Source: a bacterium (GTDB lineage Bacteria; Patescibacteriota; Minisyncoccia; Phycocordibacterales; UBA5272). From it: a stretch of 64,000 nt of DNA. Under the pieces are notes generated by a model, which did no database searches, had not been told where the DNA came from, and saw only the letters and a program-made list of their open reading frames with translations. Each line of letters opens with the position of its first letter. The stretch's first letter is position 1. The position numbers were made by a program, and so were the translations under genes. The DNA lies in contig JAYVHM010000001.1 of assembly GCA_043771335.1 (NCBI GenBank), forward strand, positions 92,901-156,900. Reading direction: 5' to 3'. Of this stretch, positions 1-41,366 are shown piece after piece.

Positions 1-82
1 AATACCAATTATTATTAGTATTTAATAAATAAAAATACACACAGAAAAAAACCCAAATTTAAAATTTAGGTTTTTTCTATGT

Positions 83-88
83 TATAAT
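83..88 (+). promoter_or_regulatory. Extended -10 element (TGtTATAAT) upstream of the 106 ORF
   Basis: tatgTTATAATtat lies 17 nt before the ATG at 106. Confidence 0.35.
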
Positions 89-105
89 TATAAAAGAATA
101 AAAAT

Positions 106-1278
106 ATGTTAGACAAAAATAAAAAGAAACATTTACTAATGATTAGTTTTATAATATCCATACTCTATGCCCTACACTTTGCGATACCGTTATATGTTAC
201 CTCTACTTATTTAGCTAATTTTATACAGACTTCTTATATTGGTATTGTCTACAGCTTTATGGGACTGTTTTCATTTTTGTTAAGTATGTATTTGGGTAGA
301 TTTGTAAAGAAATATCATAGCTATAACACGTCACTATTAATTTTGCTTATTGGCTTCGTCTCTACCCTTAGCCTATCTTTTCTTACAGAAACCTGGATGA
401 TTGTTGTAGCTTTTGTGCTCAGTAATACTTGTAGTTTTTTATTCTTTTCTATACTTAACTTTTTTATCGAGGAGTTCGACAGTGATGGTGAGACTGGTGA
501 GACGCGTGGTATATTTTTAACACTTATGAATGTAGGTATCTTATTTGCAGCCTTATCTGCTGGACAGATATTATCACTATATTCTTTTTCTGTATTATGG
601 ACCATAAGTGCTGCATGTCTTATTCCTATCATGTTCCTAATAAGACACAACTATGCACATATTCCTGATCCAAAATTTAGAAATCCAAGCATGTTATCAG
701 CAGTTAAGCATGTGATGCATAACAAAAATATTTTTGCTGTTTTCTTAGCTCTACTATCTTTAGAATGTTTTTTTGTAACAATGTCCATATATGCACCTAC
801 AGTATTAAAGAATAACTTAGACATAAGTTTAGAGACATACTTATCTTTTATATTACCTTTTGCTCTTATTCCTTTTGTTGTCTTTCCTTATCAGCTCGGA
901 GTAATAGCAGATAAAAGATATGGAGAAAAAGAGATGCTAGTTATCGGTATTATAATGTTAATTATAATAGGTATAGTTTTTCCAAATATAAGTAATGTCA
1001 GCATGCTTACCGTTGCTCTATTTTTATTTATTTCTCGTATAGCTGCATCTCTAGTTGAGAGTATGTGCACTATTTATTTTTATAAAAAAGTAAATGCGGG
1101 GGAGATTTCTATTATCGCTCTTTTTAGCAGCATCAGAGTTATAGCATACATCATAATGCCACTCTTTTCTTCTGTTATATTATATTCCGGATTATCTATT
1201 GCTTATATATTTTACTTTCTAGCCTTAATGATGATCTACTCACTATACAAATTAAAAAACTTAGTAGATACAAAATAA
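106..1278 (+). CDS. Polytopic membrane transporter, MFS-like (about 12 TM)
   Basis: 390 aa with alternating hydrophobic helices and no soluble domain. Confidence 0.45.
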   Translation: MLDKNKKKHLLMISFIISILYALHFAIPLYVTSTYLANFIQTSYIGIVYSFMGLFSFLLSMYLGRFVKKYHSYNTSLLILLIGFVSTLSLSFLTETWMIVVAFVLSNTCSFLFFSILNFFIEEFDSDGETGETRGIFLTLMNVGILFAALSAGQILSLYSFSVLWTISAACLIPIMFLIRHNYAHIPDPKFRNPSMLSAVKHVMHNKNIFAVFLALLSLECFFVTMSIYAPTVLKNNLDISLETYLSFILPFALIPFVVFPYQLGVIADKRYGEKEMLVIGIIMLIIIGIVFPNISNVSMLTVALFLFISRIAASLVESMCTIYFYKKVNAGEISIIALFSSIRVIAYIIMPLFSSVILYSGLSIAYIFYFLALMMIYSLYKLKNLVDTK

Positions 1279-1315
1279 GCTTGCCAAATAGTATATTTTA
1301 TGATATTATATACAG

Positions 1316-1987
1316 ATGAAAATAACAATCACGAAAGAAAATAGAATCAACAAAGCTCTGCAAGAAACAGGCTTTTATTCTCGTCGTGAAGCCGACCGTC
1401 TTGTCGAATCAAGGAAAGTTCATATTAATGGAGAAAGAGCTGTCCTGGGTCAAATATTAAAGATTGGAGACGAGCTAGAGGTGCGTGCTGGCTCAGACTA
1501 TATAACAAAAGAACTTCGCTATGCCCTGTATAATAAACCAATAGGTGAAGTTACCGAAGTTAAAAATTCTGAAGGATTAAAAGATTTACATCCAGTAGGA
1601 AGATTAGATAAGGAGTCAGAAGGACTCTTGATGTATACTAATGACCCGACTTTAACAGAAGAGATGCTAAACCCTGAAAATAAAATAGAAAAAGAATACA
1701 GAGTAAAGACTAGAGAGAAAATGACACCGCGAGTAGAGAAAATAATGCTTAGTGGTATGTATACCCAAGAAGCGCAATATGCTCCGGCTAAAAAAGTAAC
1801 TATTGAAGATGGTGGTCACTACGTTAATGTAACATTAATAGAAGGTAAAAAGCATGAGATACGCAGAATGTTAAACGCTTTGAATATAACCATTGTAAGT
1901 CTTCGCAGAATCAGAATACATAATATGAGATTAGGTGCGATGAAGCCTGGATCATTTAAGAAAATAGAAAGGCCTGATCTAAGTTAA
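1316..1987 (+). CDS. Pseudouridine synthase, RsuA/RluB family
   Basis: N-terminal S4 domain (RINKALQETGFYSRREADRLV) and catalytic HPVGRLDKESEGLL motif. Confidence 0.8.
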   Translation: MKITITKENRINKALQETGFYSRREADRLVESRKVHINGERAVLGQILKIGDELEVRAGSDYITKELRYALYNKPIGEVTEVKNSEGLKDLHPVGRLDKESEGLLMYTNDPTLTEEMLNPENKIEKEYRVKTREKMTPRVEKIMLSGMYTQEAQYAPAKKVTIEDGGHYVNVTLIEGKKHEIRRMLNALNITIVSLRRIRIHNMRLGAMKPGSFKKIERPDLS

Positions 1988-2000
1988 AAATAAAATAATA

Positions 2001-2037
2001 GGCGACACCAAAGGTGTCGCCTATTATTTTATTTTTA
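2001..2037. terminator. Rho-independent terminator hairpin (GGCGACACC-aaa-GGTGTCGCC) between convergent genes
   Basis: Perfect 9-bp GC-rich stem with A- and T-runs on both sides, so it could act bidirectionally. Confidence 0.6.
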
Positions 2038-2038
2038 A

Positions 2039-2110
2039 CTATTTCTTAGCTACTACTTTCTTTGCTTTTTTAGTTTCTTTTCTGTGTAAATCTCTTCCTT
2101 GTTTTGACAT
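2039..2110 (-). CDS. Tiny basic ORF (MSKQGRDLHRKETKKAKKVVAKK, 23 aa)
   Basis: ATG to stop, ending directly at the terminator hairpin; no recognisable SD; below the ORF-track size cutoff. Confidence 0.2.
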   Translation of the reverse strand: MSKQGRDLHRKETKKAKKVVAKK

Positions 2111-2157
2111 ATTTTATTTTTTAATATTCTTTTTCTTTTAATACTTTTATACATTAA

Positions 2158-3252
2158 TTATATTATATTTTTTATCTTAAAAATAATCTTATCCACAATA
2201 GAAAGAACAATACTTTTCTTTCTTCTTTTTACATTTATAGCTTTTCCATTTTTATCTAAATTATTCTTTATGTAATCTAAAACTTTTGTCTCGACTTCAG
2301 AATAAGTATTAGTATCAAAAAGTTTTTCACGTAATTCTTTTGCCCCATCAAAGCCATTTACATATGCTTTGTAATGCTTCTTCATAATAGAAAAACTTTT
2401 AATGTCACTTAATTTTTCTTCAAAGAGTTTTGTATGTTCTAACATAATTTCTAATTTTTCTTTTAAATTATATTCTAAATTATTTTTATATCTCTCTACA
2501 TTGAATAACCACGGGGTTCCAAAAACTCCTCGACCTATCATTGCTCCATCGAAATTATATTTTTCATATAATTCATTACTTTGTTTTAAACTTTTAATAT
2601 CACCATTAATAATTAAAATAGTTTCTGGAGAAAGTTTTCTTACTAACTCTTGTATCTCATTTATAAGTTCAAAATGTGCTGGGACGAGTGACATTTCTTT
2701 TTTAGTTCTAAGATGTACTGTGAGAACTGGAATGTTACATTCTAATATTTTTGGTAGCCATTCTGTATACTCTATTTTATTAAAACCTATTCTTGTCTTT
2801 ACTGAAACTGGTATTTTACCTTCTACCCCTCTCTGTGCTGCACGTATAATTTCTTGTGCTAAGTCTGGAGTAGTTATTAGCTTTGCTCCTGCACCCTGAT
2901 TACCGATGGTCACAACTGGACATCCCATGTTAATATCTACTCCATCAAATCCTAACTCTAGGCACAGCTTTGCAGCACCTTCCATATTTTCTGGAACACT
3001 AGTGAAAAGCTGCGCTACCACTGGGCGCTCTGCTTCATTATACTCGAGGTCCCTCTTTAACACTTCGCGCCCAGCACTCATGAGCCCATTACAAGACACA
3101 AACTCAGTCCAGGTTACGTCAGGCTTACCATATTTTGCTATCATATAACGAAATGCCACGTCAGTTACATCCGCCATAGGAGCTAATGTATATATTGGTC
3201 TATTTTCTTTTTTGGCTTTTTCATATACCTCTGCCCAAAATCCTTTTATCAT
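2158..3252 (-). CDS. dus: tRNA-dihydrouridine synthase
   Basis: LAPMADVTD and DINMGCP motifs of the Dus TIM barrel. Confidence 0.85.
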   Translation of the reverse strand: MIKGFWAEVYEKAKKENRPIYTLAPMADVTDVAFRYMIAKYGKPDVTWTEFVSCNGLMSAGREVLKRDLEYNEAERPVVAQLFTSVPENMEGAAKLCLELGFDGVDINMGCPVVTIGNQGAGAKLITTPDLAQEIIRAAQRGVEGKIPVSVKTRIGFNKIEYTEWLPKILECNIPVLTVHLRTKKEMSLVPAHFELINEIQELVRKLSPETILIINGDIKSLKQSNELYEKYNFDGAMIGRGVFGTPWLFNVERYKNNLEYNLKEKLEIMLEHTKLFEEKLSDIKSFSIMKKHYKAYVNGFDGAKELREKLFDTNTYSEVETKVLDYIKNNLDKNGKAINVKRRKKSIVLSIVDKIIFKIKNII

Positions 3253-3257
3253 ATTTT

Positions 3258-4505
3258 TTAATTCTTAATTTTAAAAGATTTTCTAATCAGGGTTAGACCA
3301 ACCATCGCAACCATCGCAAGAAAAATCAAATTACCCCTGTACTGGACCTGAACTCCAAAAGATGAAAGCAGGAAGAATATAACTATCCAAATAATAGGTC
3401 CAAAAATAGTTGCAGCTCTTTCAAAAATTATGAACGCACTAAAATACATGGCCTGTGAATCTTTTGGTATTATACTAGAATATATAGACCTAGCGAGTGG
3501 GAAGAATAGTCCATATGCAATTCCGGCAAAGATAAGTGTAGTAAATACAAAATAGATATTAGTTGGAGATAGCGCGAAACATAAAAAAGCAAAGACATAT
3601 ACAACTCCTCCAATCAGTAATAATTTATTTTTGTTCTCAAATTTATTAACATATCTCCCAAGAAACATGCAAGTAGAAAAAAGTGCCAGCAAGCTGATTG
3701 CTCCACCTATACTCGTCATTTTATCTGTAAACCCAAAAACATTTTTCATATATAATGATAAGTAAACCTGAAGCGTAGATATAGAATCTGCTACTAGCAT
3801 ATACCCTATTAAAAAATACAAAACTTTTTTATTTTCTTTTATCTTTAATAAAAACTTTTTATAAGAAAAAAATTCTAAATTTTTATTAATTAATCCCCCT
3901 TTGTAGTTAAAAGAACTAGAAAATAGAAATGGATACGCTAAAAATAAAAATATAAAGGCTCCTAAAAATATTGCAAGGCTTTTATCGAAAAGCCCAAACA
4001 GTGTGACACCAGAACCAATAATAAGTGCACCCATCAATCCTATACTAATGGCATTGCCCAGCTGACCTATACCTAATCCAAAACTAGAGACTTTATTTTT
4101 GTCTGATCCTTCATTTTCAAAATCTTGCATCATAGCTGAATAAAAAACATAAGAACCCTGAAAAGATATTTGAAATATTATATACAAAACCGAAAGTATG
4201 GCAAGTGTTGTAAAACTAAATACTTCATTAGTATTTGAGATAAATGCTAATAATAACAAAGAGAGAGACATTACAAAAGAAGATATCTTAATATATAAAA
4301 TTCTTTTAGACTTAGAAATGTCTGCACTATTCCCTAGTTTTGGATAAAAACTTAAAAGTATAATAGTTGAAATGACGACAGAGATTCCAATCCATGTGTC
4401 ACTAGCCCCTTTTTCAGAAAGTAAAAGTGGAAAGAAGAATACTATAACAGATGATGCAAAAGAATTTGCAAAATCATACAGATACCACAGTTTTATTTTG
4501 GACAT
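3258..4505 (-). CDS. Polytopic membrane transporter, MFS-like
   Basis: About 12 TM helices. Start moved to MSKIKLW because the ORF-track N-terminus (LCYN) reads through a TGTGTTATAAT promoter at 4521..4531. Confidence 0.45.
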   Translation of the reverse strand: MSKIKLWYLYDFANSFASSVIVFFFPLLLSEKGASDTWIGISVVISTIILLSFYPKLGNSADISKSKRILYIKISSFVMSLSLLLLAFISNTNEVFSFTTLAILSVLYIIFQISFQGSYVFYSAMMQDFENEGSDKNKVSSFGLGIGQLGNAISIGLMGALIIGSGVTLFGLFDKSLAIFLGAFIFLFLAYPFLFSSSFNYKGGLINKNLEFFSYKKFLLKIKENKKVLYFLIGYMLVADSISTLQVYLSLYMKNVFGFTDKMTSIGGAISLLALFSTCMFLGRYVNKFENKNKLLLIGGVVYVFAFLCFALSPTNIYFVFTTLIFAGIAYGLFFPLARSIYSSIIPKDSQAMYFSAFIIFERAATIFGPIIWIVIFFLLSSFGVQVQYRGNLIFLAMVAMVGLTLIRKSFKIKN

Positions 4506-4520
4506 ATTTTTATTAGGACA

Positions 4521-4531
4521 ATTATAACACA
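4521..4531 (-). promoter_or_regulatory. Extended -10 promoter TGTGTTATAAT
   Basis: Reverse complement of attataacaca; ATG at 4505, 15 nt downstream. Confidence 0.4.
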
Positions 4532-4540
4532 AAAACGACA

Positions 4541-5134
4541 TTAAATCGCTTCTGTGCTAGTTGCGGCTACCGCTGAATAATCTTCTTTTAGCTTATAAAA
4601 AACTTTTGCATCAAATCGAAGATCTATGTATTCTAATTTTTTACCTTTTTTAATTAGAGATTCTAATTCATTACTCATATATACACTAACAAAATTAACC
4701 CAGGCATTCTCTAAATTATCTTTGATTTTTAATTTTATATCAAAATTAGACATCTTTTGTATATTTACTCTTGCCTTACTTTTAACGTCTTGAGATACAT
4801 TAAAAATAATTTGATTGCTTGTAGTTGAGGTTTTTATTTCTAAAGTTTCCAAATCTATTTTTTTTAATTTATTCACAAAAAGACTTAGCCATAATTTATC
4901 TTCGTAACTTAGAACCCTCCCCCCTATTGTAGTTGGTAATATTATTTCTTCTTTTTTGTTAACATACTCTACATAATTCTTATTAAAAATCTCTCCCCAT
5001 TTTATTATTTTAAATACACCATAAATTATAACCAAAACCATAAATACCCACATAGAGACTTTTAAAAAGTATTTTAATTTGATTTTAAAATTTTCTATTA
5101 TGTCGCTAATATCATGATTGCTCTTTATTTTCAT
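4541..5134 (-). CDS. Hypothetical N-terminally membrane-anchored protein
   Basis: 197 aa with a single TM (VSMWVFMVLVIIYGVF) and no recognisable motif. Confidence 0.35.
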   Translation of the reverse strand: MKIKSNHDISDIIENFKIKLKYFLKVSMWVFMVLVIIYGVFKIIKWGEIFNKNYVEYVNKKEEIILPTTIGGRVLSYEDKLWLSLFVNKLKKIDLETLEIKTSTTSNQIIFNVSQDVKSKARVNIQKMSNFDIKLKIKDNLENAWVNFVSVYMSNELESLIKKGKKLEYIDLRFDAKVFYKLKEDYSAVAATSTEAI

Positions 5135-5193
5135 TTGTTTTTAATTATTTTTTATACAACATTTTTATGTTATAATGCTATTAATATAATAAC

Positions 5194-6735
5194 ATGAAAT
5201 TAAAGATTTTTAACACTCAAAGTAGACAAGAAGAGGATTTTATACCTATCAATGAAAAAGAAATCCAATTATATTCTTGTGGCCCTACTGTCTATCATTA
5301 TCAGCATCTTGGGAATATGCGCTCTTTTGTCTTTGCAGATATTTTGAATAATACCCTATCTGCCCTGTATCCAGAATCTGAGATTACTCATGTTATAAAT
5401 ATAACAGATGTTGGTCACTTAGTCGGTGATGGCAATGACGGTGAGGACAAGATGGAAAAAGGAAGCAAGAGAACAGGTAAAACTACTTGGGAAATATCAA
5501 AATATTACACTGAAGACTTTTTACAATGCCTCAACGCATTAAATATTGGAGACAATGAATACATAAAATCAAAAGTAAAAGATGGAGAGATTTACACAGT
5601 AGAGAATTATAAAAAAGAAAAAATAATTAGTGACAAATATACTTTTGTACGTGCCACTGATTATATAAAAGAACAAATAGACCTCATTAAAAAATTAGAA
5701 GAAAAAGGTTACACTTATGCAACTAGTGATGGTATTTATTTTGATACTAGTAAATATGCTAAGTATGCGGATTTTGCAAAATTAAATGTAAAAGGATTAG
5801 AAAGTGGAAAGAGAGTTGAGGATGTTAATGGTGAAAAGAAAAATATTACAGACTTTGCCTTGTGGAAATTTTCTCCAAAGGATGAGACAAGACAAATGGA
5901 GTGGGAGTCGCCATGGGGAATAGGATTTCCAGGTTGGCACATAGAATGCTCTGCCATGAGTGAGGCGATACTAGGTAAGAATTTTGATATACACACAGGT
6001 GGTATAGACCATATACCGGTGCATCATACAAATGAGATAGCTCAGAGTGTCTGCGCTCATAGTGGTGAGAATACAGAAAATAAATTTGTAAATTATTGGA
6101 TGCATAATAACTTTTTAAATGATGCAAGTGGCAAGATGGCTAAGAGCAACGATGATTTTTTGAGACTGGAAACTTTAACTGACAAAGATTATGACCCTTC
6201 AGCTTATAGATATTTATTATTAACTACTAATTACAGAAAAGAATTAGAATTCTCTTATGAATCTCTTGATGCTGCGAGTAATGCATTAAAGAAGTTACAA
6301 AAGTATATGCATGAAGCAGCAAAAAATGTAGATAATATTATTGACGCTACAAAATATAGAATAAATGAAGATTGGTATAATAAATTTCTAGAGGCAATGT
6401 GTGAGGATTTGAACACTAGTCGCGCACTTGCTGTTATGTGGGAGCTGATAAATCTTGAAAAAGAAAATAATAAATTAGTAGAAAGTTCAGAAAAAAATGA
6501 AAACAAAAACAAATCAGAGTCTCTACATGTCTACTCTACCATACTTAAAATGAACAAAGTTCTGGGTCTTAATTTATCTTTTTCAAAAGATGTAAATGAG
6601 TTAAGTCATGAAGACCAAGAGATAGTCGATGATTTATTTGCAAAAAGAAAAGCCGCCCGTGAGTCAAAAGACTGGGCGACTAGTGATGACCTCCGCGAAC
6701 AAATCAAAGCCTTTGGTGTGGAGGTGGTGGATTAA
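5194..6735 (+). CDS. cysS: Cysteine--tRNA ligase
   Basis: CGPTVY..HLGN (HIGH-type), KMAKS (KMSKS-type) and Zn-binding Cys/His; contains an acidic insertion. Confidence 0.9.
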   Translation: MKLKIFNTQSRQEEDFIPINEKEIQLYSCGPTVYHYQHLGNMRSFVFADILNNTLSALYPESEITHVINITDVGHLVGDGNDGEDKMEKGSKRTGKTTWEISKYYTEDFLQCLNALNIGDNEYIKSKVKDGEIYTVENYKKEKIISDKYTFVRATDYIKEQIDLIKKLEEKGYTYATSDGIYFDTSKYAKYADFAKLNVKGLESGKRVEDVNGEKKNITDFALWKFSPKDETRQMEWESPWGIGFPGWHIECSAMSEAILGKNFDIHTGGIDHIPVHHTNEIAQSVCAHSGENTENKFVNYWMHNNFLNDASGKMAKSNDDFLRLETLTDKDYDPSAYRYLLLTTNYRKELEFSYESLDAASNALKKLQKYMHEAAKNVDNIIDATKYRINEDWYNKFLEAMCEDLNTSRALAVMWELINLEKENNKLVESSEKNENKNKSESLHVYSTILKMNKVLGLNLSFSKDVNELSHEDQEIVDDLFAKRKAARESKDWATSDDLREQIKAFGVEVVD

Positions 6736-32335: not shown

Positions 32336-32971
32336 TTATGGAACTAAATCAAATACACAATCCGCCGAAGTACTAGCATTTACTTTATTAACACAAGCTT
32401 CTGATACTCCTAATCTAGGTTTTCCTGCACCATTAAAGTCTGAGTTTACATATGTATATGTAGAACTGGCAACTAATGTATTAATGTTTACAGTCGGTCC
32501 TGTTGTTAAGGTAACAGTTGGTGTGGTAGTAGAAAGGTCAGCATCGAGGCGAAGTGCAGCATTGTCAACTTCTAGTTCTGACCAAAGCTGATAAGCTGCA
32601 CAAGTGTTAGAGTAAACAACACTAGCAACAACTGCTGGCTGATAAGTGTTACACTCAAGACCTGCATAAAAATAAACCTGGTTAGCTACGTCTGTGAATC
32701 CATTAGGTAGACGATTACCTGTAGCTGATGCCCAGGTACGAAGAGTTGCTTCGTCAGCAGGATAACGTAAACTAGTATCTATACCAGTTGTAGTTAAGAA
32801 TGTCTGCATACCTCTTAATTCTGTCATTTTTTTTGCGTCACGAGCCTTTGCGAGAGCTTGAATAAAGTTAGGTAAAACTATAACCGCTAAGATACCGATA
32901 ATAGCAATTACGATTACGAGTTCTAGTAATGTAAAACCTCTTGCTTTTTTAAATAATTTAAATAATTTCAT
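32336..32971 (-). CDS. pilA: Type IV major pilin
   Basis: KKARG-FTLLELVIVIAIIGILA canonical prepilin N-terminus; C-terminal Cys pair (D-region); locally higher GC than neighbours. Confidence 0.7.
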   Translation of the reverse strand: MKLFKLFKKARGFTLLELVIVIAIIGILAVIVLPNFIQALAKARDAKKMTELRGMQTFLTTTGIDTSLRYPADEATLRTWASATGNRLPNGFTDVANQVYFYAGLECNTYQPAVVASVVYSNTCAAYQLWSELEVDNAALRLDADLSTTTPTVTLTTGPTVNINTLVASSTYTYVNSDFNGAGKPRLGVSEACVNKVNASTSADCVFDLVP

Positions 32972-33081
32972 TTGATTTGATTTTTAATACAAATAATATA
33001 AACTTGTATAAGTATATTATACTCTTAATTAATGCTTACTAATGGCACTTATCCACAAAAGACAAAAGACGTATATTATTG

Positions 33082-39717: not shown

Positions 39718-39810
39718 ATTTTTATACTTAGAAAGATTTTCTATCTCTACTTATTTATATTATATATTATAAATAAGAAAATAATTAAAACATATACACA
39801 AACATAAAAA

Positions 39811-39842
39811 ACAAAAACAACTCGTAAGAGTTGTTTTTGTTT
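39811..39842 (-). terminator. Hairpin terminator (AAACAACTC-gtaa-GAGTTGTTT) with T-runs on both strands
   Basis: 9-bp stem with tetraloop; sits between the histone-like gene stop and the pilM start. Confidence 0.55.
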
Positions 39843-39862
39843 TAGAGTAATAATTTTTATTA

Positions 39863-40027
39863 TTATTTTCTCTTAGCCACTTTTTTAACAGCTTTTTTAG
39901 CAACTTTCTTTGCTACTGTTTTTTTAGCGACTTTCTTCACAGCTTTCTTGACTGCTTTTTTAGCAACCTTTTTTGCTGGAGCTTTTTTTGCAACTTTTTT
40001 AGCTGCTGATTTTTTTGCTACTGCCAT
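39863..40027 (-). CDS. Histone H1-like / Hc1-like basic protein (54 aa, AKK repeats)
   Basis: MAVAKKSAAKKVAKKAPAKKVAKKAVKKAVKKVAKKTVAKKVAKKAVKKVAKRK; below the ORF-track cutoff; has its own terminator. Confidence 0.6.
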   Translation of the reverse strand: MAVAKKSAAKKVAKKAPAKKVAKKAVKKAVKKVAKKTVAKKVAKKAVKKVAKRK

Positions 40028-40183
40028 AGTAATTATATAGATTTAAAACTTATGAGAGTGGGTGACTGATTGACCAAGATCATCTATCACTCTCTACTTA
40101 GTATTATTACATGTATAAAATATCTTGCAATAGTTATACACTAATTTCTCTGTGGATAACTCATAATTTTACAAAATATGTAA

Positions 40184-40206
40184 ATGCAAATGCGAAACAT
40201 TTGCAT
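40184..40206. promoter_or_regulatory. Perfect dyad ATGCAAATG-cgaaa-CATTTGCAT in the histone-like gene upstream region
   Basis: 9-bp inverted repeat with a 5-nt spacer; putative operator. Confidence 0.3.
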
Positions 40207-40244
40207 AATAAAAAAAGCATTAATATTTCTATTAATGCTTTGTT

Positions 40245-41174
40245 TTATTTTTGAGACCAGTTTTTTCCTCTTATTCCTCTTGGTTTTATATTCTTATCAA
40301 GTTGATATTCAGAATTGATACCAAAATTATTTCCAAAAACAGATCCAAATTCTTCTCTGTTCATAACTCTTACATTTTCTCTTGTATACGGTATTGAAAA
40401 ATCTTTTCTCACCAACATAAAATTTTTTCCATCTTTTAAAACTTTTAATAATGCCTCTCTCTTGCTTATGTCTGGATAATTTTTATTAACTACTTCCAAA
40501 TATATTTTTAAAAGTTCCAAAAGAGACATTTGCATAAAATAAGAATTAGAATATTCTAAGAGTTTTACATGTGTTGCGTTACGATTTATTGCAATCATTT
40601 TATCACGAAGTAAGTTAAATATTTCAGGACTTAACTTTCTTTTCATTTGAAAATAGTCATACAAAGATAATCCATTCATAAAAGCTTTTAACCTAACATT
40701 GTAGGAGCTCTCATATACTTCTTTATATCTTCTTTTAAGATCATACTTTGAAGAATCCTTTATGTACTCAAAACCATGTGATTTCAAAATGTTACAAATT
40801 GATTGTCTTGTTGCTCCTAATTTCCTAGAAACTTCAGATATCGTAGAGCCAGACTCTAGCTCCATCAAAATAAAAACTAAATCTTTATGTATTTTTGTTT
40901 CTTTAACTTCTGTAATTTTTTTTAATTTTTTACTAGAAGCCTTTTTCTTTTCAAGAGCTTTAAGGAAAACATGTTTATAATCATGGATATTTTCTGGTGA
41001 TAGATTTCTCCATTTTTGTGAGAAAAGAGAATAGCTAACCTTCAAATCTTTGCATATTTCTCGAAAATGTTTTTTACCTTTATTTTCTTCGTATATAGCT
41101 TTTGCTTTGGTTATTATCTCTAACCATCTATCTCTTGTAGTCTTCTGTTTAGAATTATCAAAATAGTCGGTCAT
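40245..41174 (-). CDS. Hypothetical protein with two HTH motifs (transposase-N / sigma-region-4-like) and no catalytic domain
   Basis: KHFREICKDLKVSYSLFSQKW and STISEVSRKLGATRQSICNILK; adjacent to tRNA-Thr. Confidence 0.4.
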   Translation of the reverse strand: MTDYFDNSKQKTTRDRWLEIITKAKAIYEENKGKKHFREICKDLKVSYSLFSQKWRNLSPENIHDYKHVFLKALEKKKASSKKLKKITEVKETKIHKDLVFILMELESGSTISEVSRKLGATRQSICNILKSHGFEYIKDSSKYDLKRRYKEVYESSYNVRLKAFMNGLSLYDYFQMKRKLSPEIFNLLRDKMIAINRNATHVKLLEYSNSYFMQMSLLELLKIYLEVVNKNYPDISKREALLKVLKDGKNFMLVRKDFSIPYTRENVRVMNREEFGSVFGNNFGINSEYQLDKNIKPRGIRGKNWSQK

Positions 41175-41290
41175 TTTTATCTCCTATAAAAAGTGCAACG
41201 TAGTTGAATTAAAAAATTATTTCTAAATAAATAATTAACCATAGACTAATATACTAACACATAGTCTTGTCTTAGTAAAGATTATTATTT

Positions 41291-41366
41291 TTTGAGAACA
41301 TGGAGCCGCCGAGCAGGATTGAACTGCCGACCTCGTCATTACCAATGACGTGCTCTACCAACTGAG
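41291..41366 (-). tRNA. tRNA-Thr (GGT), CCA encoded
   Basis: Reverse complement gives GCCGCTG-TA-GCTCAGTTGGTAGAGC-A-CGTCA-TTGGTAA-TGACG-AGGTC-GGCAGTTCAATCCTGCT-CGGCGGC-TCCA. The displayed line 41341 shows only 50 nt, so positions after 41366 in that line are uncertain. Confidence 0.85.

Follow-up and report, generated by a model that had tools for sequence, protein, structure and literature searches.

The short lysine- and alanine-rich gene at the centre of this study (the KKA gene) was found in a 64,000-nt stretch of Patescibacteria DNA, referred to here as the window. On balance, though with considerable reserve, it appears to encode a stand-alone, H1-tail-like polycationic nucleic-acid-binding protein that is transcribed alone, abundant and possibly under the control of DnaA. 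The coding sequence occupies 39863..40027 on the (-) strand and runs from ATG to TAA over 54 codons, with the translation MAVAKKSAAKKVAKKAPAKKVAKKAVKKAVKKVAKKTVAKKVAKKAVKKVAKRK. An in-frame TAA lies 6 codons 5' of the ATG, which is therefore the sole possible start of this frame.

The predicted protein is very small and strongly basic (54 aa, 5.7 kDa, pI 11.8, charge about +25). It consists of 46% K+R, 28% Ala and 19% Val with one Pro, and has zero Asp/Glu and zero aromatic residues. KK recurs every 4-5 residues and all 54 residues are repeat, so the full-length Lys/Ala repeat frame of 54 aa described in the initial annotation is borne out by both the reading frame and the composition. Its likeness to an H1 C-terminal tail, also proposed there, agrees with the high K+R content and the lack of acidic residues, and the composition is Hc2-like as well. 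AlphaFold2 predicted a helix over residues 18-53, after Pro17, with a mean pLDDT of 77. The lysines show a periodicity of 85 degrees per residue, that is, they spiral round the helix and do not line one face. The mean hydrophobic moment is 0.25, compared with 0.22 for a fragment of the H1.0 tail, with values of up to 0.56 in local 18-residue windows.

Scans of the 54-aa protein against Pfam, NCBIfam and PHROGs returned nothing meaningful. At E <= 1, Pfam gave no match to Linker_histone (PF00538), and so no winged-helix domain, and none to Hc1 (PF07432), the N-terminal Hc1 domain being absent; ribosomal-protein and RNA-binding families were likewise unmatched in the Pfam and NCBIfam scans. None of the 8000 word-match candidates listed by a word-indexed protein search passed, and the exact sequence was absent from that collection. 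A full phmmer scan of 1.84 billion representatives yielded one match, a 414-aa KKAVAKKVA-repeat protein with an unrelated C-terminal domain. In a local test, the composition correction of HMMER stripped about 36 bits even from the self-match of the KKA protein. HMMER negatives are therefore uninformative for this protein, and the lack of a Pfam or NCBIfam match that would indicate homology to HctB repeats has to be read with the same loss of about 36 bits in mind. The KKA protein cannot be shown to be homologous to any H1-like protein so far characterised.

Because this correction hides the family, degenerate DNA-pattern scans were adopted, and relatives were reached in two ways, through the contigs of PilM homologues and through a degenerate N-terminus DNA pattern searched over GTDB genomes and JGI metagenomes. 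The gene was found upstream of pilM where PilM is 68-73% identical, as frames of 57 aa in L008/L009, 46 aa in L006 and 29 aa in L007. The pattern scan added L014 (58 aa), L015-L017, L019 and L022-L024 (47-51 aa), L018 and L020. Seven of the eight genome matches were Patescibacteria MAGs, variously labelled Paceibacterota, Paceibacteria, Parcubacteria, 'Saccharibacteria' or 'bacterium'. The same scan also matched a 33-aa peptide in a Nevskia MAG. The window has an identical counterpart in a contig of a BUSI22 metagenome assembly. Viral-contig matches obtained with a looser pattern were rejected, being merely KKA linkers within larger phage proteins. The search of related genomes for this repeat peptide that had been proposed at the outset was thus rewarded with relatives in three Patescibacteria clades.

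These proteins share the N-terminus MA[VA]AKKxAAKKVAKKA, KKxx/KKxxx repeats, the C-terminus KKVAK[RK]K and a length of 29-58 aa; the search pattern itself accounts for part of the conservation at the N-terminus, and it did not require the other features. A lone transcription unit, a DnaA-box promoter and an intrinsic terminator were found together with them. The GC content of the three clades spans 31-47%. Clade A, the window group (GC ~31%), has tRNA-Thr, RNase P RNA or an HTH gene upstream of the KKA gene, and in every clade-A locus the gene is located directly upstream of pilMNO-pilB-pilT-pilC. Clade B, represented by L014 (GC 37%), has a SET-domain gene upstream and a gene for a TraG/VirD4-like ATPase downstream, with 23S/5S rRNA nearby, and in clade C (L015-17, L019 and L022-24; GC ~46%) the KKA gene lies between murB and secA. 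The SET-domain gene was found solely in L014 when the window and all fetched loci were searched. Since the neighbours differ between clades A, B and C, they offer no functional clue. The promoter, leader and terminator, by comparison, accompany the ORF in all three clades. The family would thus appear to consist of 'tail-only' polycationic proteins of Paceibacteria/Parcubacteria-type MAGs.

It is almost certain from these comparisons that the ORF is a real, conserved protein-coding gene. Every public contig that bears it has it among the called genes, seven of them with the identical 54-aa protein, and even the 29-aa allele is called; the initial annotation was wrong to state that ORF callers miss it. 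The relatives' frames measure 29, 46, 47, 51, 54, 57 and 58 aa, every one of them in frame, and the start and stop context is unchanged across these length variants. L007 and L006 carry the 29-aa and 46-aa alleles on contigs with identical flanks, and repeat number also differs within clade C (47 vs 51 aa) and clade A (54 vs 57 aa). Between the window and L008, seven synonymous and 0 non-synonymous differences were counted in 38 alignable codons, and the C-terminus is kept in all three clades though it was absent from the search pattern. Judged by these substitutions and variants, the protein is under protein-level purifying selection, with in-frame change of repeat number tolerated.

Were the ORF untranslated, the conserved unit would be a non-coding RNA or a mere low-complexity DNA repeat. 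The sequence is indeed of low complexity with a tandem-repeat structure, the protein matches no family, and the gene has no Shine-Dalgarno motif. The last point is uninformative because 50 of the 58 genes in the window also lack one, the motif being present in only eight. Against a non-coding unit stand the in-frame length variants with their constant start and stop context, the exclusively synonymous substitutions relative to L008, the stops held by the other reading frames across the ORF, and the absence of an Rfam match, so that this reading is extremely improbable. The idea that the region is simply the 3' UTR of pilM has the geometry wrong, since the ORF and pilM share a strand, with the ORF upstream and a strong terminator in between.

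The KKA gene is, as predicted from these signals, transcribed alone, with its own sigma-70-type promoter and intrinsic terminator in every clade. The terminator (39808..39843, (-)) starts 20 bases past the stop codon and consists of a 16-bp perfect stem with a 4-nt loop, an A-tract before it and a T-tract after it. No other terminator-like site occurs in the region, where 0.2 were expected, and the strong terminator that had been credited to the gene is fully borne out. Relatives in all clades keep a hairpin and a T-run after the KKA gene, and the sequences differ.

On the promoter side, a -35 hexamer TTGCAA (40125..40130, (-)), kept as TTGCAA, TTGCTA or TTGTGT, is separated by a 16-nt spacer from a TG-extended -10, TGtAATAAT (40103..40111, (-)), which occurs as the same element in L006 and L014 and aligns across clades. 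A start about 7 nt downstream of the -10, near 40096, is predicted from this element; TAAGYAGA is conserved around it, and the predicted 5' UTR would be about 69 nt long (40028..40096, (-)). A second, leaderless promoter was considered and rejected: its TATAAT leaves only 4 nt to the ATG, too short a distance when other window genes have 6 nt, and clade C does not conserve it. The 135 nt upstream of the ATG are, within clade A, better conserved than both the pilM coding DNA and the synonymous sites of the KKA ORF. Identities for these 135 nt, the pilM DNA and the spacer after the gene were 100%, 87% and 78% in L003, 97.8%, 87% and 78% in L018, 94.8%, 72% and 64% in L008, and 89.1%, 74% and 49% in L006. 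The predicted 5' UTR is 89-100% identical in relatives whose pilM DNA is 72-87% identical. Four conserved islands emerged from the alignment of upstream regions across the three clades, namely the DnaA box, the -35/-10 elements, TAAGYAGA, and the GAGAG(T)/(A)CTCTC arms of a hairpin.

All three dyad symmetries that had been taken as signs of tight regulation are present in the 217-nt upstream region, and this DNA is unusually strongly constrained, but the dyads differ in what they may mean. Their chance levels were estimated from 1000 dinucleotide shuffles of the region. A 9-bp arm with a short loop, as in dyad 3, appeared in 2.7% of shuffles, a 7-bp arm with a long loop, as in dyad 1, in 53%, and an 8-nt palindrome, as in dyad 2, in 86%, so that dyad 3 alone is unusual by itself. 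Dyad 2, TTGACCAA (40070..40077), lies in the loop of dyad 1 and was rejected as a regulatory dyad, since it is at chance level, broken in L006 and missing in clades B and C. The sequence that dyad 1 encloses, TTGGTCAA, is itself disrupted in L006 and lacking in clades B and C; of it, just GGTC recurs.

Dyad 1 (GAGAGTG...CACTCTC; 40054..40094, (-)) begins at +2/+3 of the predicted mRNA in all three clades, a location at the 5' end of the transcript that the initial annotation had overlooked, and is meaningful because it is conserved in relatives and not by its shuffle frequency. It folds in both the MFE and the centroid structures. The GAGAG(T)/(A)CTCTC arms are conserved throughout the three clades with different loops, and in clade C a 5'-end hairpin is formed with the arm order reversed, an upstream CUCUC arm pairing with the GAGAG arm. 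The hairpin rests on position and conservation, because the arms are invariant and so show no co-variation, and the folding energy of the leader is no better than that of shuffles except in clade B. Stem-loops at the 5' terminus are well known to protect mRNA against 5'-end-dependent RNases, as in the E. coli ompA leader and the 5' stabilisers of B. subtilis. For dyad 1, a stabilising hairpin at the 5' terminus is the most likely role, ahead of an operator.

Dyad 3, the palindrome ATGCAAATG-N5-CATTTGCAT (40184..40206, (-); about -110 to -88), has a variable loop and G-T-compatible changes in clade A, is an imperfect 15-pair stem in clade B and is absent from clade C. It was flagged as terminator-like by the terminator scan in L006 and L014, and may be an upstream insulator that shields the promoter from transcription entering from upstream, a terminator or an operator. 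Neither the leader nor the palindrome matched an Rfam family.

The initial annotation had further suggested the neighbouring double-HTH protein (40245..41174) as a possible regulator; on this model the three dyads are operators, and the HTH protein binds the palindrome at 40184..40206 and tightly represses the KKA gene. The palindrome is rare by chance, as the shuffles show, and is conserved in clades A and B, and the neighbour does possess HTH-like segments (HTH_23, E = 7.5e-5, below the Pfam cut-off). However, the HTH gene is absent beside an unchanged palindrome and promoter in L003, L006/7, L008/9 and L014, the control regions of L003, L006/7 and L008/9 being 89-100% identical. In L003, tRNA-Thr followed by 113 nt replaces the 1.07-kb HTH segment, and the KKA promoter and leader are 100% identical. 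The KKA family also reaches clades with other neighbours altogether (murB/secA; SET-domain and TraG-like genes). Among 5.8 billion proteins, the HTH protein has only one homologous cluster, its homologue in L018, and the two are 71% identical, where the KKA protein is 96% identical between the window and L018. It matches phage HTH and small-terminase-like families best, and its gene sits in a hypervariable spot beside tRNA-Thr with its own terminator, a fourth hairpin at 40245..40210. Comparison with relatives thus largely refutes the neighbour as regulator, a role that is now very improbable; to judge from its distribution, the HTH gene does not encode the regulator of the family and is instead a phage-like orphan, an accessory gene at a variable site.

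A further candidate for a control element, missed in the initial annotation, is a perfect match to the DnaA-box consensus, TTATCCACA (40151..40159, (-)), centred near -59 and 20 nt upstream of the -35. Judged by the textbook consensus, which may not be that of this phylum, 11 of 13 distinct upstream regions have a perfect box, and the remaining two, both of clade C, depart from it at one base. The box precedes the -10 by 39-40 nt in every clade, even though the -10 itself stands anywhere from 73 to 93 nt ahead of the ATG; by this fixed spacing the box is tied to the promoter rather than the ORF. Perfect boxes number 16 across the 207 kb of fetched loci, and 15 of these lie at a KKA promoter, against about 2 expected. 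Each KKA promoter has a single box, with no second strong one, and neither dnaA nor oriC was found in the 64,000 nt of the window.

Promoters regulated by DnaA include those of dnaA and nrdAB in E. coli, sda in B. subtilis, and gcrA and hdaA in Caulobacter. They resemble the KKA promoter in having a consensus box whose position, immediately upstream of the core promoter, is fixed, and the sequence feature that marks a DnaA regulon, a consensus box sited at the promoter and kept in its orthologues, was found here. The KKA promoter differs from the known ones in having just one box, to which binding is putative. A literature search returned nothing relevant on DnaA boxes in Patescibacteria, and we know of no nucleoid-protein gene that is a conserved DnaA target. 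Taking these points together, there is about an even chance that the KKA gene is under DnaA control.

Lys/Ala-rich H1-like proteins have long been known in bacteria. The chlamydial Hc1 and Hc2 resemble the KKA protein in their Lys/Ala-rich short repeats, and repeat number is polymorphic in both Hc2 and the KKA family. Hc1 and Hc2 condense DNA non-specifically, and the same function may be presumed for the KKA protein, although the latter is 3 to 8 times shorter, lacks the N-terminal domain of Hc1 and belongs to another phylum. Hc1 is controlled by a small RNA in the developmental cycle, unlike the KKA gene, whose conserved control element is a DnaA-box consensus. Hc2 binds DNA and varies in its number of lysine-rich pentamers, from 165 to 237 aa (PMC2848022). 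Four-residue Lys/Ala repeats are also shared with the C-terminal domains of AlgP and PhaF; the KPAA-repeat peptides of AlgP bind DNA in vitro, their repeat number is polymorphic, and AlgP localises to polyP granules (PMC9239181). AlgP and PhaF have a folded helical N-terminal domain and Pro in every repeat, whereas the KKA proteins have 1-2 Pro and no extra domain.

[quoted passage not shown] The H1 tail is disordered and folds on DNA binding. As the KKA protein is without the winged-helix globular domain of H1/H5, it is tail-like only and not a linker histone. In the actinobacterial HU proteins (HupB/MDP1 and HupS), PAKKA- or AKKA-type extensions add DNA affinity and compaction; these tails are appended to an HU fold, whereas the KKA protein stands alone. 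In this respect it is closer to protamines and Coxiella ScvA, which are very small stand-alone polycations that coat DNA and have no folded domain, but these are Arg- or Arg/Gln-rich and stage-specific, while the KKA protein is Lys/Ala/Val-rich and shows no sign of stage specificity. Because it lacks the defining globular or N-terminal domains, the KKA protein belongs to none of the H1, Hc1 and AlgP families, whose tails it resembles.

Composition makes it quite probable that the KKA protein is a nucleic-acid-binding polycation. It would bind nucleic acid backbones without sequence preference, in the way of the H1 tail, Hc2 and the tails of AlgP, PhaF and HupB, and, on the strength of its composition and expression signals, may serve as an abundant nucleoid-coating or compacting protein. 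A start about 7 nt past the TG-extended -10 would put the GAGAGTG/CACTCTC stem-loop at the extreme 5' end of the mRNA, where it could shield the message from 5'-end-dependent decay and so favour high expression. If TTATCCACA at -59 is a DnaA binding site, it might couple synthesis of the KKA protein to the initiation of replication, much as histone synthesis is coupled to S phase. Chromosomal DNA is, by a modest preference, the main target we would expect.

The main rival to this nucleoid-coating reading is that the KKA protein is a general polyanion binder, acting as an RNA or ribosome chaperone, as a counter-ion in place of polyamines or as a polyphosphate-granule protein, with a main partner other than chromosomal DNA. 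Composition cannot separate DNA from RNA or polyP; polycations of this kind have as much affinity for RNA, polyphosphate and further polyanions as for DNA. AlgP, a Pseudomonas H1-like protein, organises polyP granules (PMC9239181). Stable-RNA genes also adjoin in several loci (tRNA-Thr, RNase P RNA, and 23S/5S rRNA in L014), but these neighbours are not conserved, those of clade C being murB and secA. Ribosomal-protein and RNA-binding family matches are absent, as noted, and the DnaA-box promoter would suit a DNA- or replication-linked role better, so that general polyanion binding is considered rather unlikely. An exported or pilus-associated cationic peptide, with an antimicrobial, host-directed or DNA-uptake role beside the type IV pilus, is brought to mind by the position directly upstream of the pil genes in every clade-A locus and by the local hydrophobic-moment peaks of 0.56. 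No signal peptide or hydrophobic segment was found in the protein, however, its mean moment is only 0.25 with a lysine stripe that spirals and has no single face, the strong terminator separates the gene from pilM, and clades B and C are unlinked to pilus genes. An exported peptide is accordingly most improbable, and an amphipathic antimicrobial peptide in particular was ruled out by the hydrophobic-moment periodicity.

A search of the literature found no H1-like or nucleoid protein described in Patescibacteria, nor the KKA family, and to our knowledge the organisation of very small Patescibacteria (CPR) genomes is almost wholly unstudied. What appears to be new is a conserved family of tail-only mini-proteins in this phylum, its DnaA-box promoter architecture and its invisibility to standard homology tools. 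Profile searches, through the HMMER composition correction, and word-indexed databases are blind to the family, and similar mini-proteins are probably under-counted everywhere. The conserved DnaA box offers a concrete link, open to testing, between replication initiation and the supply of a nucleoid protein. It may be speculated, with much more doubt than confidence, that Paceibacteria-type Patescibacteria package their genomes with a 'histone-tail-only' polycation of 3-6 kDa whose synthesis is tied to replication through the DnaA box at -59, and that in at least one lineage an adjacent SET-domain lysine methyltransferase may modify this polycation. Should the KKA protein be the major coat of the DNA, it would rank with the simplest chromatin proteins described so far, and it is accessible by peptide synthesis.

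Two KKA loci of the group to which the window belongs (L006 and L007), whose contigs come from different samples, have identical flanks and differ in the length of the Lys/Ala-repeat gene by one 51-nt (17-codon) repeat unit, so that the product is 46 aa in L006 (3126-3266) versus 29 aa in L007 (3125-3214). This difference is one of repeat slippage or recombination within one population, and the same 51-nt period was also found by TRF in the window copy. In L006, positions 2548-2901 (+) additionally match bacterial class A RNase P RNA over its full length (87.6 bits, E = 4e-27). The score is below the Rfam gathering score of 100, and the sequence looks like a divergent patescibacterial rnpB missed at the default threshold.

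The genes beside the KKA gene vary among loci. At the clade B locus L014, the gene directly upstream (3099-3530, −) of the KKA gene (2733-2909) encodes a protein of 143 aa with a SET domain (PF00856, E = 8e-23). This neighbour is, as predicted from its domain, a lysine methyltransferase standing beside a lysine-rich, histone-tail-like protein. Chromatin proteins are known methylation substrates of prokaryotic SET enzymes. No SET homologues were found in the window or at loci other than L014. In the window, the gene of a 309-aa HTH protein (40245..41174, −; flanks 40228..41299) separates the KKA module from tRNA-Thr. The spot it occupies is hypervariable: its length is 113 nt at L003 and about 250 nt at L008, both loci of the window's group. 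The HTH protein is an orphan with only one other cluster among 5.8 billion proteins, and it best matches phage HTH and small-terminase-like families; the segment is possibly the remnant of an integrated element.

Besides the box upstream of the KKA gene, the perfect DnaA consensus TTATCCACA occurs in the window only at 2189..2197 (+) and 33049..33057 (+). The latter is intergenic, a short way upstream of a promoter-like TATAAT that belongs to gene 32336..32971 (−), and may therefore mark another DnaA-controlled promoter. Shine-Dalgarno motifs precede only eight of the 58 window genes. A perfect TATAAT precedes the ATG of several genes by exactly 6 nt (upstream of 19665, 35367 and 56692, −, among others), which suggests that this organism commonly makes leaderless mRNAs. 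Both GC skew and gene orientation switch near 2-5 kb (within 1..6000), the remainder of the window having negative skew and minus-strand genes, consistent with a replication terminus near its left end.

A 23-codon ORF at 2039..2110 (−), which encodes MSKQGRDLHRKETKKAKKVVAKK, may be a further gene for a tiny basic peptide or may have arisen by chance; a strong bidirectional hairpin (about 1993..2027) adjoins it. A 33-aa KKA peptide, MAAAKKKAAKKVAKKAVKKVAKKAVKKAAKKKK, is encoded in a Nevskia sp. MAG (L021:4161-4262, +; GC 62%), where it has its own terminator and is preceded by a good Shine-Dalgarno sequence; its upstream region is unrelated and contains no DnaA box. Nevskia is a gammaproteobacterium, so KKA mini-proteins that stand alone also occur outside Patescibacteria, which would reflect either convergence or transfer.
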